From Cladosporium halotolerans (Eukaryota), in the NCBI RefSeq assembly GCF_011745625.1, contig NW_027191469.1, positions 310,001 through 374,000 on the forward strand: a stretch of 64,000 nt of DNA. Reading direction: 5' to 3'. The translations under genes were made by a program, and so were the position numbers. The notes beneath the pieces were generated by a model. It was not told where the DNA came from and did no database searches. It saw only the letters and a list, made by a program, of their open reading frames with translations. Below, piece after piece: positions 42,977 through 55,636 of the stretch (its first letter is position 1; each line of letters opens with the position of its first letter).

Positions 42977-43910
42977 TCAAGGCTTCTGCTCAGCCTGAGC
43001 ACCACCCGCATCAGCGACGGGCTTGACGTCGCTGGCGCTCTCCTTAGTCTGGCCCAGAGGCAGCTTCTCCTTGGAAGCCTCGAGGCTCTCCTCCTGGCTG
43101 GACAGGAGGGTGTGGACCGGGGCGTCGAGCTTGGCGCGGCCCTGGAGGAAGTCGAGCTCCATCATGAAGAGGAAGCCCTTCAGGTCACCAGCCAGCTTGC
43201 GGACGAGGGAACCGGCGGCGGCGGCGGATCCACCTGGGAGAGAGATATGGTCAGCGGAGGTGTTCACTGGGAGTGCAGCAGGGTTGACGGGAGAGCTTAC
43301 CAGTCGCGATAATGTCGTCCACGATGATGACCTTCTGGCCCGGCTTGATCGCGTCCTCCTGCACCTGGAAGTGGTCGGTGCCGTACTCCTTCTGGTAGCC
43401 CTCGGTGACACACTTGCCAGGGAGCTTGCCCTGCTTGCGGACGGGGACGAAGCCGGCGCCCAGGCGCAGAGCGAGAGTAGGACCGAAGAGGAAGCCGCGG
43501 CTCTCAAGGCCGACGACGACGTCGATGTCGCTCTTCTCGCCGACAGTGGTGTCGAAGGCGGCCGCGACCTGCAGCTCCAGGGCGCGCACGAGGTCCGTGA
43601 AGGTCTTGTGGTTGGCGAAGATGGGCATGATGTCCTCGAAGAGGATGCCCGGCGAGGGGAAGTCGGGGAACTGGCGCAGAGCTCCGCGCAGGTTTACTTT
43701 AAGACGGGAGAGTTCGGCGGGACCGGAGGCATAGGCGGCGGCGAGTCCTCCTTGGGCGCCATTGCTGGCGGTGCTGGTGGTCGGGTCGGGCTTCTCGGCG
43801 GGCGGGTGGGAGGCAGTGGAGGGCTTGTCGACGGCCTGAGTGCTGGCGGAGGTGTTGTCCGGGTGGCCGTGAGGAGGGTGCTGAGCGTGCGAGACGGGGG
43901 CGGCGCTCAT
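42977..43910 (-). CDS. apt1: Adenine phosphoribosyltransferase; one intron at about 43233-43300
   Basis: [39 protein letters not shown] and the PRPP motif [12 protein letters not shown]. Confidence 0.96.
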
Positions 43911-45594
43911 ATTGGGAGAAGGAGGGGAGGGGTTTTTTCCTGGGGTGGGATGGGAAATTTTTTGGTGGGCGGATGGCTGCGTCGGCGGGTGCAAGAGTGA
44001 GGTAAGCGGTGACAGGGCCGAGAGGGGAGCTGGAGCGAGATGCTGGGGGGAGGTGCAGGCGAGCGGCGGGCGACACGGCAGGTTTGTGCGTGGAGTCTGG
44101 CGATGGTTGGGTCTGGTTGGGTTTGTTGCTGCACAGATATCACAGCAGGGCGGGCGGCGGGCGGCGATGGTGGGAGTGCGGGGCGCAGGGCCGGGAGGGA
44201 CTGATTGACGAACACCGACCAAGGGCCGCTCCCAGGGACCGCTCACATTGTTGTTTTGGGCTGTGATTACTTGACTGTGCGACAAATGATCACGCATATA
44301 CGACATGTTCATTGTATACGTCTAGCAAGGTGACACACCACAACGCTGTCCATACCATACCCGGCAATAAACCAACCACACACATTGATCCCACCATCAT
44401 CTACCCCCTCCCATCCCATCCCATCCCACCTCGCACCCTCCACGCCGTCACGCAATAATAACAAAGCCCCCAAGTAGCTCCCTCCCACCACGAGTGGCGG
44501 TCTACACGCTCCACACGTGTCCGCGCGTATTGGCTGGCAAATCACTCAGCGGCAAAGCGAGAGATTCGCGTTGCGGGGCACACGCACCAAGCACACACGC
44601 CTGGTCTGGCCTGACTCTTCACGCAGCCCTGGCCGCTTGGAAGCGAGCTCCGAGCTCCCTAAGGTAGTAAGTAGTAGGTCCTTGGTAGCAAGCTTCAGGT
44701 CCATCGAACGTCTTCCCACGTCACACCAGCAGAGCGGCAGAAGAAACGCAGACGCAGCCTGCACTCCACCCTCAACGCATGCACCCGCCCGTCAGCCGCA
44801 CGAGCTACGAGTCTCGAAAGCGTTCCAGAAGGCCTCCCCGTCTGCAGCCGAGCCGGTGCTGTCGCGTCAGATAAGCAGCGAGTCGTGCGAGAGGTTGTTC
44901 AACCAGACGGACGGCTGGCGGGGGAAGGGCTTGCTTGCTGCGTCTGCCGACGTCGTCCCATCTTCGGGAGACCGTGATGGCCGGATGATGCTGTGTAACG
45001 TTGCACGCGATGGTTTCTTTGTGTCTTGTTGAGGGTGGGCAAGATTGAGTGGATTTGTGCATGCAATAGATTGTGGATGGTGAACGCTTCAAGAACGAAG
45101 TGTTGTATGTCGGCTTCTATTGGGTCAACCATAGGTGTGGATGTCTCACTTTTGTACGCCTGCTCATCGACTGCACCCGCGTTCTGATCTATCAGGTCGC
45201 TCAGCTGGCTTGACGAGGCCTACAATGAACCTCAAGAATGTTACAGATGGGTTGGCCAACATCTCTGATTGATTGGATCCTTGAACCCATCACACAATCG
45301 TGTCTGACTAACAAAGCCAAATGGGTCCTGTTGACACGTCTGACAGCTCCCAGGTGGCGTGAACACCTGGAGAAATCGCCATTCTGCTCGTCTCACGTTC
45401 GACCGTCTTTATCCGGAAGCTTGTGCCTCGCGCTCGTGCCAAAATGTGACATGTCGGTGGTGCAGGCACGGGACGCGTTACATTTGCGACGCGTCGTGCG
45501 TCCTTTACCGCCGCTCAATTCTACCACCACCTTCCCAACCGAGAACAGCGAAAGCTTGGCATCACCGTCGAATCACGCCGCAACTTCTCCCCCT

Positions 45595-48803: not shown

Positions 48804-49520
48804 TGTTGCTTGGACAGGTAGCCAGTACAGCGCACAACGTTTGGACACGCTCTGGCCGATATCAATTGGTCGTAAGACGGCCGTGAACGACTGAAAAACA
48901 GCTTGTAACGGCGATAATTGGCGGCTCTAATACCACCTAAACCAGATGGGGATCAAGACGGAGCCTGCCGCCTTTGCCAAGTCGCTCTCAGAAAGAATGA
49001 GAATGCCTCCGTTGCCGTAAGACAAGGCACATGGACAATTTCTGTCCAAATGACGAATCCACAGCCTTCTGCAGCCGTCGATTGCAGCAACGAGCAACCG
49101 TCTGCGTTGATCTAAGTTTTCGTTGGCACCGAACAGAGGAAATGCGTTGCGAAGAACCTGAAGAACGACATGCGGTGCCCCACCAAGCCGCTACAGGAAG
49201 CCAGCCCACCGGGGTCTGTCGTTAGCCCGAACCATGGACAAGCCAATTCTTGGGACGGCTCGCTCTTATCTTTTCCTTTGAGCCATCTTTTTCCTTTAGG
49301 AGCTTTCTGTCATCGCTACCGCAGCTGTTCTTTCTGCTAAGTTGACTCTCGAGGTCTCTCGTTCATCAGGCAGGTTCTCACTATCCTCAGGAATTGACTT
49401 CGACGTTTGCGACGCTTCTCGCCGATGTCGCTCTCAATGTTTGGTAGCACTAACCATCTTCACAGGCGCATCCACTGTCTGAAACAGCTTTCGAACGACT
49501 GTACGCCACGCCCTACCACA

Positions 49521-49813
49521 ATGCATTCTAGTAGCAAAGCCGCATCTGGAGTCCAAGATCAAGGTATCGCCCGTAAACAGCATGAGCCGGTGCTCGACGC
49601 TTAGCTGCGGCCCGTGACACGAGCGCATTACGCATACCGAAAGGTATGGACGCTCTGTCCGGACCGCAGCATTCGTCGGGCTGAGATCATACGGCCTTGA
49701 ACTTGCTCTGGGTAAAGCCAGCGAAAGGATCATGCTTTTGAGACAATCTGAGAGTGAGGTGTGAGAAACTGACTTCTTTAGGACACCATGGAAGAGCGCG
49801 GAACAATGGATGA
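49521..49813 (+). promoter_or_regulatory. Inhibitory uORF created when the proximal donor (49564) is spliced to the acceptor (49781)
   Basis: ATG 49521 reads MHSSSKAASGVQDQ, splices in phase 1 to G-HHGRARNNG*, and overlaps the permease ATG (49788) out of frame. Confidence 0.65.
49579..49736 (+). promoter_or_regulatory. TPP (thiamine pyrophosphate) riboswitch aptamer in a 5'-UTR intron of the NCS1 permease
   Basis: P1 AGCATGA/TCATGCT, P2 GCCG/CGGC, P3 GCTCGACG/CGTCGGGC with a long extension, CTGAGA pyrimidine-sensing junction, and P4/P5 ACTTGCTCTGGGTAAAGCCAGCGAAAGG matching the fungal pattern ACTTGATCTGGATAATACCAGCGAAAGG. Intron is GTATCG (49564) ... CTGAC ... TAG (49781). Confidence 0.93.
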
Positions 49814-51389
49814 AGCGGCCGGTGTGTCGCAACGCCAGAGAATGCAAGATGTTGAAAAGATCGGGCCAAACCTTGCGCCCCAAACGTCTGTCGCTGCGCA
49901 GACGGATTCTACGGATGCCGAAGCAACTGCTGGCCGTGGACCAATGCGATACATGAAGTCTTTCGAGAAGACCTTAATTCGCTACAATATGGAAGCGCGA
50001 GGAATCCAAAGAGTCATGCCGGAAGACCGCCACAGCCTTACTCAACTGGGCTTTGGCCAGATCGGTATCCTGTGGTTCAGTGTCAACTTGGCCGCCAACA
50101 ATATCACTCTTGGTATGCTGGGTCCCGCCGTGTACCATCTCGGCTTCACTGAGGCGAGCTTGTGCGCGGTGTTCGGTATGATTGTAGGCATCCTCCCAGT
50201 CGCGTACGTCGCTACGTTCGGACCAAGGTCTGGTAACAGGACCATGGTTTTCGCCCGCTACTCGATGGGATGGTACCCTGCGAAGATCATCGTGATCTTG
50301 AACATCATCGTTCTTCTTGGATACTCTCTCCTCGATGCTGTGATCGCCGGACAGATGATCAGCGCTGTCAGCGGCAGCGGCAACTTGAGCGTCGTCGTGG
50401 GCATCATCGTGGTCGCCGTAATCACCTGGGTCATCACGACCTTCGGCTACAGCGTCTTCCACCTGTACGAGCGATACGCCTGGGTTCCCCAAATCATCGT
50501 GGTCTCCATCCTAGCCGGCGTCGCCGGCCCCTCCTTCGACCTGACCTCCAACCCATCCGAAGGCGAAGCACCCCTCACAATCAAAGGCAACCGCCTCAGC
50601 TTCTTCAGCCTCTGCCTAGCCGCCGCCATCACGTACAGCGGCGGCGCCGCCGACCTCTTCGTCTACTACCCCGAATACGCGCCGCGCCGCAAAGTCTTCT
50701 TCGTCACCGCCCTCGGCCTCGCCGCCTCCTTCACCTACGCCTTCATAGTCGGCATCGGCCTCGGCTCCGGCATCGCGCGCAACACCGCCTGGAGCGACGC
50801 GTACACCGTCTCGCAGGGCGCGCTGATCGTCGAGGGCTTCGCGCCGCTGGGCGCCTTCGGGTCTTTCTGCGGCGTGATCGTGGCCCTCGGCCTCGTCGGC
50901 AACATCATCCTGCCCGTCTACGCGTCGGGCGTCGACTTCCAGACGCTGGGGACGAATTTCGAGAAGATCCCGCGCGTCGTGTGGAACTCCGTCGGCGTGG
51001 TGATTTTCACCGTCTGCGCGATTGCTGGGCGCGCGAACCTCGCGACGATCTTTACGAACTTCCTCGCGCTTATGGGATACTGGGTGTCGATCTGGATCGC
51101 GATTCTGCTGGAAGAGCACCTGCTTTTCCGCAAGTGGCGCGGACTGGGCTGGAATTGGGATGCGTGGGACGACGCGCGCAAGCTGCCTGTTGGTCTTGCG
51201 GCACTGGTTGCGTTCCTCGTCGGTTGGGCGGGCTCGATTCTGTGCATGGCGCAGGTTTGGTATATTGGTCCGCTGGCGGCGCTGGTGGGAGAGTATGGTG
51301 GAGACATGGGCAACTACGTTGGGTTTGCTTGGGCGGGGATTGTGTTTCCTGGTCTGAGGTGGTTGGAACTGAGGAAGTTTGGACGGTGA
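49788..51389 (+). CDS. NCS1-family purine-cytosine permease (Fcy2/Tpn1-like), probably transporting thiamine or a precursor
   Basis: EARGIQRV, LWFSVN, FGPRSGNRTMV..RYSMGW, FHLYERYAW, ADLFVYYP, NFLALMGYW, AQVWYIGP and ELRKFGR; about 12 hydrophobic helices. Substrate is inferred from the riboswitch. Confidence 0.92.
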   Translation: MEERGTMDEAAGVSQRQRMQDVEKIGPNLAPQTSVAAQTDSTDAEATAGRGPMRYMKSFEKTLIRYNMEARGIQRVMPEDRHSLTQLGFGQIGILWFSVNLAANNITLGMLGPAVYHLGFTEASLCAVFGMIVGILPVAYVATFGPRSGNRTMVFARYSMGWYPAKIIVILNIIVLLGYSLLDAVIAGQMISAVSGSGNLSVVVGIIVVAVITWVITTFGYSVFHLYERYAWVPQIIVVSILAGVAGPSFDLTSNPSEGEAPLTIKGNRLSFFSLCLAAAITYSGGAADLFVYYPEYAPRRKVFFVTALGLAASFTYAFIVGIGLGSGIARNTAWSDAYTVSQGALIVEGFAPLGAFGSFCGVIVALGLVGNIILPVYASGVDFQTLGTNFEKIPRVVWNSVGVVIFTVCAIAGRANLATIFTNFLALMGYWVSIWIAILLEEHLLFRKWRGLGWNWDAWDDARKLPVGLAALVAFLVGWAGSILCMAQVWYIGPLAALVGEYGGDMGNYVGFAWAGIVFPGLRWLELRKFGR

Positions 51390-52911
51390 TGGGTGGTGGT
51401 TGGGATAAGGAAGAATTGGGTTCTGATGCCGTTGAGCCTTCAAGCTCAATGGGTATGACCTACGTATTTTGGACATAGGTGTGAATACAAGATTGCCACT
51501 TTGAAGTATTCATTCATTTGATTTCGATCGTGTCGACGAGATCCGTAAAACCACGGGCAGCTGAGATTAATTTCCAATGGCCGGACATCGTGAAGCACAT
51601 GGAACACTCCAGCAATCGCAGCGAAGCAGGGGTTCCTGTCGACGACACGATATATTTTATGTGGGCGATATTTTCATTTCAGAGGTATTATCCGGAATGC
51701 TCGCTCCACTTCGGGTCGTTTTGCCTTGCGGCGCCGGCTACATCCAAAATTGATGCCAAAGCGTAATCAGCTTCTTATCGGCGGACTTGCGCCCGGTTGT
51801 ATTTTTCCGCCTGTCGCCGCGGATGTCGGTGGAAAAGGCAGCCCACGTGTGACCATTACATGAAGCATCGTGAAATTCTGTGACCATGCTTTTTGTCGTG
51901 GCGTTTGCCATGCCGCCGTAGAAGGTTGAGAGTCACCCTCAGTTCTAGGAGGATGTCAACTTGGCATCACAGGGTCGTTGCTCCATCTGAGCTCAAGGCG
52001 TGCAAGTTGCTTCTTTGGATTGCCGAACCTCCGGAACAAAATGTGACCAATGCCGAGAGGGATACCAGACGGTTTTCCGGCTCCAAGGTACATGTATTAT
52101 CATGATGTTTGTGAAGCTGACCGGCTTGGCTTCCGCAGCATGCCGCTTACAGTACAGGATGTTTTCATGGCTGTGTCAGCGATTAGAGAGACACCGAGCT
52201 GCAGCCGCCGCAAGTTGCCATGTCATTATGAAAGCAGCTGGCCCCGCCGGGGGGCAGCACAAGGTTGCTAGCACCCGTCCAAGGCCCTTCTTCGTAGCTG
52301 ACTGACACACGCTATCCGGCGGTTGTTTGGAACAAACACAGACCGACAGTCGTAGCATTAGATAGATAAACAGTCATACGAAAAACAAGCTTAGTTCCGT
52401 TTGCACAGTACGGCAGTTCGTAGGACCAAGCAAGACGTGGAGGGCGATTGATGTGACTTTAGCCGCCCAGACACCGACGGACGAAGCGTTGAGCGAGTCC
52501 CCTTCAACAACAGTTCCATATCCGCGATACAGGCAAAAGCCGCGGAGTGCCGGCGTCTGCGCAAACAGCCCTCCCGCCGTCTGTGCCAGCCTCGCCAGCC
52601 TGCCCGGCCTGCCGTTGCCAGGCCTCACACGCCTCGCTCGACGGACTGCCACGCGAAGGCCGAAGGCGGATCGAATCATCGCGCTGATCGCGGCGGGCCC
52701 AGCGCCAGCGTGCAGGGCCGACTAGCAACTGCGCCCGCGAGCCCCTACTCGCCCCTCGTCCAAACATTGCCCCACCATCATCGTCATTTTTCACCCACCC
52801 ACCGACGACACGCCACCTTGCCCTCCGCTCTCTTTTACTGCCCGCCCTCATCCACATCTCACACCTTCTTTCCCACGCTACACTGCAGATCCATCTGACA
52901 CTACCGCAAAG

Positions 52912-55266
52912 ATGGGCTACGACAAGACTGACCAGCTGGCTATCAACACCATCCGCACTCTTGCGGTACGTTTGTTGGGACGAGCTCAATGGAGGGGCAG
53001 CACCGCGTCACTGCACCGCAATGGCTGCGGTCAAGCTCCTCCAGCACGACAGTATCACTGACTGACATGATTTACAGGTGGATGCCACCTTCGCTGCCAA
53101 CTCTGGCCACCCCGGTGCGCCCATGGGTATGGCCCCGGTCGTGAGTCCCCCCCGCCCTCACCGCAAGCTTCCCATCAGCTCCCAGTCGCTAACCACACAT
53201 CCTGCCCGCAGTCCCACGTCCTCTTCAACAAGTTCATGAAGTTCAACCCCAAGAACCCCAAGTGGCTCAACCGTGACCGCTTCGTTCTTTCCAACGGCCA
53301 CGGCTGCGTGCTCCAGTACTCTCTGCTGCACCTCTTCGGCTACAAGCTCTCCATCGACGACCTGAAGAACTTCCGTCAGGTCGACTCCATCACCCCCGGT
53401 CACCCTGAGTCTCACGACACTGAGGGCATTGAGGTCACCACGGGCCCTCTCGGCCAGGGTTTCGCCAACGCCGTCGGTCTCGCCATGGCTGAGCGCCAGA
53501 CCGCCGCTACCTTCAACAAGCCAGGCTACGAGCTCGTCAACAACTACACTTACTGCTTCTTCGGTGATGGCTGCGCCATGGAGGGCATTGCCTCCGAGGC
53601 TGCCTCCACTGCCGGTCACCTTCAGCTCGGCAACCTGATCACCTTCTACGATGACAACCACATCTCCATTGGTAAGAAAGATTTTGGAATAGAAATAGAA
53701 GGGACACAGCTAATATTCTTTAGACGGTGACACCAAGTGCGCCTTCACTGAGGACGTCAGCAAGCGCTTCGAGGCCTACGGCTGGCACGTCGTGTGGGTC
53801 AAGGACGGTGACAACGACCTCGAGGGCATTGAGAAGGCTATCAAGGAGTGCCAGGCCGTCAAGGACAAGCCCTCCATGATCAGGCTCACCACCACCATTG
53901 GTTTCGGCTCCAAGCTCCAGGGCACCGGTGGTGTCCACGGTAACCCTCTCAAGGAGGACGACTGCAAGCAGGTCAAGGAGAAGTTCGGCTTCGACCCGTC
54001 CAAGAGCTTCGTCGTCCCCCAGGAGGTCTACGACATGTACCACAAGCACGCCGACGAGGGTGCTGCCGCTGAGCAGGAGTGGAACCAGCTCCTCGAGAAG
54101 TACTCCGCTGAGTACAAGGCTGAGGGCGCTGACCTCAAGCGTCGCCTGACTGGCAAGCTTCCCGACGGCTGGCAGGAGAAGCTCCCGACCTACAAGGTCG
54201 ACGATGCCGCCATTGCTTCCCGTAAGCTCTCCGAGACCGTCCTTGAGAAGATCTACGACGTCATCCCTGAGCTCGTCTCCGGCTCTGCCGATCTGACTGG
54301 CTCCAATAACACCCGCTGGAAGGCCGCCGTCGACTTCCAGCCCCCCAGCACCGGTATTGGTGAGTGGTCTGGCCGCTACATGCGCTACGGTGTGCGTGAG
54401 CACGCCATGGCCGCCATCATGAACGGTCTCTCCGCCTACGGTACCCTCATCCCCGCTGGTGGCACCTTCCTTAACTTCGTCTCCTACGCCGCCGGTGCTG
54501 TCCGTCTCTCCTCCCTCTCTCAGCAGCGCGTCATCTACGTCGCTACCCACGACTCCATCGGTCTGGGTGAGGACGGCCCTACCCACCAGCCGATCGAGAC
54601 CCTCGCTCACTTCCGTGCCCTGCCCAACATGATGGTCTGGCGCCCGGCCGACGGCAACGAGTGCTCCGCCGCTTACTACGTCGCCCTCACCTCCCAGCAC
54701 ACTCCCTCCATCCTCGCCCTCACCCGCCAGAACCTTCCCCAGCTCGAGGGCTCCACCATCGAGAAGGCCATCAAGGGTGGTTACGTCGCGCTCGAGGACA
54801 AGGAGGCCGACGTCACCCTCGTCTCCACCGGTTCCGAGGTCTCCATCTGTCTTGAGGCTGTCAAGACCCTCAAGGAGAAGAGCAACCTCAAGGCCCGCGT
54901 CGTCTCCATGCCCTGCACTGAGGTCTTCGACGCCCAGCCCAAGGACTACAAGCTTTCCGTCATCCCCGACGGCATCCCCGCCATGTCCGTTGAGGTCATG
55001 TCCACTCTCGGCTGGGAGAAGTACTCTCACGAGCAGTTCGGTCTCAACCGCTTCGGTGCCTCTGGCCCCTACAAGAAGGTTTACGAGGTACGTTACCCAT
55101 CGCCTTCTAATTATCCATTTATATTGTATGCTAATAATGCCTTCCACAGAAATTCGAGTTCACCCCCGAGGGCATCTCCAAGCGCGCCGCTGCCACCGTC
55201 GATTTCTGGAAGGACGTCAAGCCCCTCCGCTCCCCGGTCAACCGCGCTTTCCAGCAGCTCATCTAA
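52912..55266 (+). CDS. tkl1: Transketolase; 4 introns
   Basis: [33 protein letters not shown]-binding GDGCAMEG...YDDN, GVREHAM and [16 protein letters not shown]. Strong C-ending codon bias. Confidence 0.98.
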
Positions 55267-55636
55267 GCTCGTGGAGGCGATGTGCTAACGACCGTGCGAC
55301 GACGAGGAAACTTCCCTGTTATGAAAAAAACGAATACAAAAGAAGAAAAAGTCTTCGGACACGAAGATAATGGTCTGGAGGCCTAATTCACACATGGTAG
55401 ATAGACCGTCCGGCTATATGGGAATATGACGTTTCACTTTTTTTCTACAAACAAGCCTGTCCGTATCTCGATTGTGAGGTCTCCGCCTTGTTGAGAATGT
55501 GTCTGCTCTTGTCTTGTTTACTTGTCACCCATATTCCATGCTCATCCTACATGTGAATGATGTTTCCCTTGCCCCGAAAAAGCTGACATGCACCAGATGT
55601 TCAATCCCAACTCACTGAGCATACAAAACGCAGCGC

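Follow-up and report, generated by a model that had tools for sequence, protein, structure and literature searches.

A TPP riboswitch of the described TPPsw-NUC group in the leader intron of a Cladosporium halotolerans NCS1 permease gene, with probable Type I control

Introduction

Does a TPP riboswitch control a fungal permease gene that would be annotated as a purine/cytosine or B6 transporter and, if so, how, and is the pairing new? The question was raised by a sequence-only reading of 64,000 nucleotides of Cladosporium halotolerans DNA (the window, whose first letter is position 1). This initial annotation placed a full aptamer, P1 to P5 with a CUGAGA junction, at 49579 to 49736, inside an intron that ends 6 nt before the ATG of an Fcy/Tpn1-type NCS1 permease. 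It named NMT1, THI4 and an SSS-family transporter as the best-studied fungal cases, and implied that the pairing with this permease was novel. Features described below lie on the + strand of the window unless stated otherwise.

A TPP-type aptamer with an extended P3

The aptamer spans positions 49580–49735, as delimited by its minimum-energy fold, a sub-threshold match to RF00059 and an alignment of 36 sequences; the layout is as first claimed, to within 1 nt. From the sequence and the fold, P1 is formed by GCAUGA (49580–49585) and UCAUGC (49730–49735), and P2 by GCCG (49586–49589) and CGGC (49692–49695). An extended P3 of 89 nt (49592–49680) and a P4/P5 arm with a GCG bulge (49702–49727) were assigned in the same way, and J3-2 reads CUGAGA (49681–49686). 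The CUGAGA of J3-2, ACGG/GAAC around J2-4 (49691–49702) and the GCG bulge between P5 and P4 (49726–49728) are what we take to be the ligand-pocket motifs. All three are present, in columns that are invariant in the alignment. Folded alone, 49575–49740 forms a three-way junction with P1, P2-P3 and P4-P5 arms (−73.6 kcal/mol, z = −5.19), and none of 200 dinucleotide-shuffled sequences folds as well. Judged by its motifs and predicted fold, the element is a TPP-type aptamer, and TPP binding is predicted.

At the gathering score, RF00059 has 0 matches in the whole 64-kb window. When 601 nt were searched with permissive filters, no other Rfam family was detected, and RF00059 itself scored 35.1 bits (E = 3.6e-5), short of the gathering score of 54.3. 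The Rfam search proposed in the initial annotation thus finds the family at a score under the threshold. In the alignment to the model, the 3′ half of the element fits the consensus, but the 5′ half is misplaced into the hairpin at the far end of the extended P3. The score falls below gathering because P3 is long and the P3a hairpin is missing in the fungal element. When 20 orthologous loci were scanned at gathering, two passed (L033, 56.1 bits; L046, 54.9 bits). Both have a short P3, and both aptamers occupy the same position relative to the gene as that of the window.

For comparison, metagenome contigs were scanned with an alignment of the permease protein, which gave 80 loci at 47–88% identity. 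The 36 distinct aptamer sequences were aligned over 202 columns (alignment A3), and the structure was scored as 27 pairs in 5 helices. Standard pairs are formed by 90.6% of the cells, versus 28–43% when the partners are slid by 1–3 columns. Ten of the 27 pairs change on both sides, e.g., U-A/A-U/G-C in P5, A-U/G-C in P2, and six pairs of P3. In covariation the alignment scores 0.197 versus 0.085 in shuffles, and none of 500 shuffles reaches its score. Covariation among the 36 distinct sequences thus supports all five predicted helices.

Also of note in this alignment is the sequence of P1, which is near-invariant in the 36 aptamers beyond what pairing asks for (GCAUG … CAUGC; A3 columns 4–9 and 189–195), so that each P1 strand puts an AUG in the retained intron. 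The Hortaea werneckii NMT1 aptamer, as printed in a 2024 supplement, begins and ends in a like manner (PMC11683625).

The permease gene

The aptamer precedes a single-exon CDS (49788–51389) with an ORF of 533 aa. The translated protein matches PF02133 (permease for cytosine/purines, uracil, thiamine, allantoin) with 67.2 bits against a Pfam cutoff of 23.5, and the NCBIfam model TIGR00800 (NCS1) with 140.9 bits, which is under the equivalog-style cutoff of 353.1. About 10–12 hydrophobic segments are displayed in a crude Kyte-Doolittle scan; an NCS1 profile and a polytopic topology are therefore both found. No solved structure matched the permease sequence at E <= 0.01.

A total of 914 homologues of the permease were found. 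Among those that carry a name, the best come from Dothideomycetes: Polychaeton citri (74% identity), Hortaea werneckii (71%, labelled 'FCY21'), Aureobasidium pullulans (70%) and Verruconis gallopava (64%). The labels carried by homologues are purine-cytosine permease FCY21/fcyB, vitamin B6 transporter, or NCS1 nucleoside transporter family. With these labels and the PF02133 score above cutoff, the assignment to the NCS1 permeases stands. The names that refer to purines, cytosine or B6 are automatic transfers, with no assays behind them.

The main start codon is at 49788, in the context ACCAUGG. It is supported by an N-terminal block, DVEK..LAP, that is common to the permease homologues. It should be noted that the protein-database entry for this permease has 481 aa and begins at Met53 (MRYMKS...). 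The gene caller missed the first 52 residues (49788–49943), which are conserved and lie beside the riboswitch intron.

Introns of the leader

Contigs of four public runs (X13, X1, X5 and X6) were aligned to positions 49000–51500. Run X1 is RNA by the index's guess only, and contigs cannot reveal rare isoforms or thiamine dependence. The riboswitch intron is 218 nt long (49564–49781, GU..AG) and is seen both spliced and retained in X1. One contig, of depth 49.9, has a joint 49561>49780 that skips 218 nt with GT..AG ends at cut +2. A second contig, 49535–49809, of depth 78.6, reads through the intron unspliced. With depths of 98.6 for exon 2 and 143.5 for the CDS, the X1 contigs are too noisy to speak to a third isoform. 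Exon 3 begins at 49782, 6 nt ahead of the ATG. Thus the spliced contig confirms that the aptamer lies inside an intron, 49564–49781, that ends 6 nt before the permease ATG. The 3′ end of the intron (49769–49781), read from the sequence and the X1 joint, consists of a branch-like CUGAC (49769–49773), a pyrimidine tract and the acceptor AG (49780–49781); the pattern [CU]UGAC...CAG is kept there in close loci.

A second, upstream leader intron is indicated by another X1 contig, which matches 49463–49564 and carries a loose end of 50 nt before 49463 that resembles approximately 49348–49366. This intron 1 (49370–49465) is placed by the loose end together with conservation in the nine closest loci. 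It has a branch sequence CUAAC (49450–49454) and an acceptor AG (49464–49465), and its donor is either CAG|GCAGGU at 49370, which would make it a GC-AG intron, or the GU at 49374. In an alignment with the nine closest loci (A2), CAGGCA.GU and the branch plus CAG are kept in the same places. Removal of intron 1 eliminates the ATGs at 49425 and 49437.

The donor of intron 1 reads CAG|GCAAGU in these relatives (L001–L009) and CAG|GCAGGU in the window (49370–49375; A2 columns ~169–180). The loose end of the X1 contig fits a GC-AG donor if its 30 printed letters adjoin the joint, and use of the GU four bases downstream is possible.

Between the two introns lies leader exon 2 (49466–49563), which is delimited by X1 and X6 contigs that start at 49463 and by an X1 contig that ends at 49564. 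The exon holds a candidate distal donor and the start of an upstream ORF, and toward its 3′ end A2 shows hardly any variation among the nine closest loci.

Donors, upstream AUG and complementarity to the aptamer

The 120 nt upstream of P1 were compared across the 36 distinct loci. The proximal donor, S2, reads CAAG|GUAUCG, with its G at 49564; the donor with its flank covers 49555–49575 and is fixed by the X1 splice joint. A motif [CG][AG]AG|GTA is found at S2 in 32 of the 36 loci, and P1 lies 15–25 nt beyond it. Upstream of S2 there is an AUG at 49521–49523, in the context ACAAUGC, and an ATG is found in this place in all 36 loci. Farther upstream is the candidate distal donor, S1, ACU|GUACGC (49501–49506), to which conservation points: the aligned column has GTACG in 24 of 36 loci, and a further 7 carry GTATG, GTACA or GTAAG, so that 31 are GTA-type.

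The upstream ORF depends on how the leader is processed. After splicing from S2 it has 24 codons and runs across the main AUG in another frame to a stop at UGA 49809–49811; with the intron retained it stops at UAG 49602–49604. The number of upstream AUGs in the window leader is 0 if S1 is used or exon 2 is skipped, 1 after splicing from S2, and 4 when the intron is retained. A gene model was obtained for 34 of the 36 loci, with 3′ splice sites and start codons placed heuristically. On these models the S2-spliced upstream ORF runs across the main ATG in a different frame in 31 loci, and in the other 3 it ends 12–18 nt before it.

The S2 region is complementary to part of the aptamer. In 24 of the 36 aptamers of A3 the P4 5′ strand reads CUUGAUC, the exact complement of the GAUCAAG that precedes S2. 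The window lineage has CUUGCUC in P4, and pairs instead UCAAGG (49559–49564) with CCUUGA (49695–49700), and CCGUA (49571–49575) with UACGG (49690–49694). In the predicted ligand-free minimum-energy fold of 49495–49790, helices between S2 and the aptamer replace P1, P2 and P4. The strongest 16-nt partner of the aptamer segment from P2′ to the P5 5′ strand lies in the S2 flank (−40 to −8 from P1) in 28 of 36 loci, and the best 16-nt duplex of the window has −15.1 versus a median of −7.3 kcal/mol, values that are thermodynamic predictions, as are the folds, on related and non-independent sequences. A whole-region RNAduplex comparison of the 120 nt upstream with the 3′ half of the aptamer gave low energies with weak z against mononucleotide shuffles (window −1.2; range +0.2 to −4.5).

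A model for control of the permease

What is observed at this locus is the aptamer with its conservation and covariation, the intron, S2 use and retention of the intron in RNA-type contigs, the upstream AUG with its conservation, and the complementarity between S2 and the aptamer. We hold with good confidence that the element is a TPPsw-NUC riboswitch in the 5′-leader intron of an Fcy/Tpn1-like NCS1 permease gene of a Dothideomycete, most likely with control of the NMT1 type (Type I). At low TPP, the aptamer strand of P2′, J2-4 and P4 (49690–49706) would pair with the S2 flank (49559–49575) and hide S2. Splicing would then take place from the distal S1 (49501), or exon 2 would be skipped. Either event would drop the upstream AUG, and with a leader devoid of upstream AUGs the permease is therefore proposed to be made. 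At high TPP, the aptamer would close and S2 would be freed, with the short intron then removed or retained. The AUG at 49521 would be kept, with its ORF running over the main AUG out of frame, or four upstream AUGs would be present in the retained form; the permease is therefore proposed to be off. In this model we infer S1 use, the direction of the switch and TPP binding, and the cargo would be thiamine or a precursor.

Among the features that mark Type I switches, complementarity of the P4/P5 strand to the proximal donor region is found by prediction. As for two donors that flank the start of an upstream ORF, S2 use is seen and both S1 and the upstream AUG are conserved. A junction that joins 49500 or exon 1 to 49782 was not found in the contigs of X13, X1, X5 and X6, which is not evidence of its absence, because contigs drop rare forms.

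The S2-spliced and intron-retained forms are the only isoforms seen in the contigs, and a switch that uses S2 as its single donor should thus be considered. The S2-spliced mRNA would then be the productive one, by leaky scanning past the upstream AUG, and TPP would block splicing, which adds three further upstream AUGs and premature stops and leaves the message silenced or degraded. The four upstream AUGs of the retained form, against one after splicing, agree with such a scheme, as does the context of the main AUG (ACCAUGG), which is better than that of the upstream AUG (ACAAUGC). Genes with one obvious donor and unspliced products that carry stops are known, and a scheme of this kind is proposed for some DUR31 genes in Donovan 2018 (PMC5997356). 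However, a single-donor switch leaves unexplained the conserved GTA-type donor upstream of the upstream AUG (31 of 36 loci), the out-of-frame overlap of the upstream ORF with the main AUG (31 of 34), and the sequestration of S2 in the ligand-free fold. Since that fold sequesters S2, TPP is predicted to promote its use, not to block it. We regard control by retention from a single donor as unlikely, although it keeps an appreciable chance, and prefer the Type I model with two donors.

Distribution and loss of the aptamer

A custom covariance model built from A3 (R1) has one match in the window. In the metagenome loci, the survey of orthologues that had been suggested as a check finds the aptamer upstream of the orthologous CDS in 63 of 80, one match per locus. 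The 17 loci with no R1 match comprise 11 that are cut off upstream and six (L011, L061, L062, L073, L074 and L075) that have ample upstream DNA and no intact aptamer. Riboswitch control is thus dispensable in some lineages.

Such losses could suggest that the aptamer is a relic, neutral or in decay, and that thiamine has nothing to do with the permease, which would be an ordinary transporter of purines/cytosine or B6. Locus L028 does have a damaged aptamer (CGGAGA, CCAAAG), the six loci with upstream DNA have no match, and homologue annotations name purines, cytosine or B6. Against this, every position that is invariant across the 36 aptamers is intact in the window, and in the nine closest loci the leader diverges around an aptamer core that, like its flanks, does not vary. 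The names themselves, being automatic transfers, carry little for this reading, and we consider it very improbable for the window. Less probable still is that an ordinary intron resembles a TPP aptamer by chance. The Rfam score under the gathering threshold could be cited for this, but we consider it refuted by the comparative data, given the fold z of −5.19, the covariation and the same element in the same place in 63 of 80 loci.

The loci with altered or absent aptamers show several types of change. The sequence at L028:2326-2468, compared with L027:1649-1793, has the marks of a decaying aptamer: CGGAGA replaces CUGAGA, CCAAAG takes the place of the bulge motif CCAGCG, and the P1 3′ strand reads UCGUGC instead of UCAUGC. 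The upstream ORF of L028 has shrunk to ATG-TAA, and its R1 score is 71.4 bits versus 103.3 bits for its close relative L027. In L061, L062, L073, L074 and L075 (56–62% identity; ~2270–2450 in each), where there is no R1 match, a 5′ remnant GCAUGAACACCUGUU[CU]G is kept, and in L073–L075 a GAACUUG-like piece is found further on. This looks like lineage-specific riboswitch loss in the five loci. No aptamer trace at all is found in L011. Another sublineage, L024, L025, L031, L041, L042 and L043, displays an insertion in the region of the P5 loop, and its P2 has GCCGGAG or GCCAGAG instead of GCCGGUG. R1 scores are low in these six loci (17.6–58.9 bits), and they may represent a structural variant of the aptamer.

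Relation to published riboswitches

The pairing of riboswitch and permease was already published in 2018, and the locus is a further member of the described TPPsw-NUC group, that of the 'nucleoside transporter' genes or AN4526.2 family. The novelty implied at the outset does not hold: this permease family is one of five published fungal TPP-riboswitch groups (PMC5997356, PMC5882874, PMC11683625). Donovan 2018 describes TPP riboswitches in genes of Stagonospora nodorum and Xylona heveae and in AN4526.2 of Aspergillus nidulans, likens these genes to Tpn1 and Fcy21, and counts AN4526.2-type genes among five groups that were also found by Moldovan 2018 (PMC5997356). In Mukherjee 2018, nucleoside-transporter riboswitches act through an upstream ORF or an in-frame stop, and a Type I scheme is set out that includes pairing of P4/P5 with the proximal donor (PMC5882874). 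A survey in ACS Omega 2024 has 26 TPPsw-NUC elements, 13 of them in Dothideomycetes, with two H. werneckii elements labelled '5′ UTR, Type I' (PMC11683625). H. werneckii, A. pullulans and V. gallopava, whose permeases are 64–71% identical to that of the window, are all listed there with a TPPsw-NUC element (PMC11683625). The Aspergillus oryzae member is treated in a modelling paper (PMC8786325). According to published surveys, the NUC group tends to occur where a riboswitch-controlled 'urea-type' transporter is absent (PMC11683625, PMC5882874).

The window locus shares with the TPPsw-NUC group the gene family, judged by annotation and by homologues in the listed species rather than by the AN4526.2 sequence, the place in a 5′-leader intron just before the start codon, and the predicted Type I mechanism. 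Compared by eye with the H. werneckii NUC aptamer in the 2024 supplement, the window aptamer has the same P1 (GCAUGA/UCAUG), P2 (GCCGG/ACGGC) and P3-base motifs. It differs in its longer P3 (89 nt) and in a total length of 156 nt versus 107 nt. The window lineage further differs from the group in P4, with CUUGCUC instead of CUUGAUC, and in an extra CCUUGA in J2-4. An additional leader intron is present upstream here, but nothing essential differs.

A close parallel outside the group is NMT1 of Neurospora crassa, whose TPP riboswitch was reportedly described by Cheah et al. in 2007. There also the aptamer is in a 5′-UTR intron, two donors flank upstream start codons, a P4/P5 strand is complementary to the proximal donor, and the off state with TPP is predicted to come about through an upstream ORF left in the mRNA. 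The NMT1 switch is classed as Type I in Mukherjee 2018 (PMC5882874). The two loci differ in that NMT1 is a biosynthetic enzyme and the window gene a permease, and in that the distal-donor isoform and TPP dependence would here be as the model predicts. DUR31/NCU01977 is alike in being a transporter under splicing control by a TPP riboswitch; however, it belongs to the SSS family and not to NCS1, and its intron of 650–900 nt acts through long-distance pairing (Type II). Thiamine transport by Dur31 has been shown by experiment (Donovan 2018; Li and Breaker 2013 as cited in PMC5882874).

Neighbouring genes

A transketolase, which is a TPP-dependent enzyme, is encoded at 53071–55288 (+), ~1.7 kb downstream of the permease. 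It is found as two reading-frame pieces, the first with PF00456 (266 bits) and the second with PF00456, PF02779 and PF22613. A functional cluster of permease and transketolase was considered and rejected: a transketolase is present in the flanks of 0 of the 80 related loci, and the adjacency thus looks coincidental. On the other side, ~5 kb upstream, a phosphoribosyltransferase domain (PF00156, 37 bits) is encoded by an ORF at 43254–44321 (−). Only in L024 and L025 does a relative of this ORF, with 48% identity, lie downstream of the permease.

Possible substrate and meaning for the permease family

The import of thiamine or of an HMP-type precursor, proposed in the initial annotation, is the same guess as that made in the literature on the group. 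The idea of an HMP-type precursor has its basis in bacterial CytX (TIGR02358). This member of the NCS1 superfamily is a putative transporter of HMP, and is often preceded by a TPP riboswitch. CytX and the window permease are alike as NCS1-type permeases under a TPP riboswitch. They are unlike in their mode of control, which in bacteria is by transcription or translation and not by splicing, and the match of the window permease to the CytX model is weak (27.2 bits versus a cutoff of 309.85). No experimental test of the substrate of this permease family, or of the splicing of its switch, was found in the open-access literature. An example with a verified intron together with 63 related loci is therefore a reasonable starting point for such work.

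The locus itself adds little, as the group was catalogued in 2018 and again in 2024. The Rfam result has a wider bearing on the family. At the gathering score RF00059 misses the group, with the window and 18 of the 20 scanned orthologous loci falling below it, and annotation will therefore keep calling these genes purine-cytosine or B6 permeases.

As a tentative suggestion, held with low confidence, the AN4526.2/TPPsw-NUC permeases may import a pyrimidine precursor, either HMP or a related product of salvage, and not thiamine itself, and the leader exon may be a dedicated 'anti-aptamer' module. Such a module may consist of an upstream ORF whose RNA is near the reverse complement of P4-P5 and is conserved across fungal classes; no description of a leader module at such resolution was found in open-access papers. 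If import of such a precursor is true, these permeases would be the eukaryotic counterpart of bacterial CytX, and the Fcy branch of NCS1 would gain a new substrate class.
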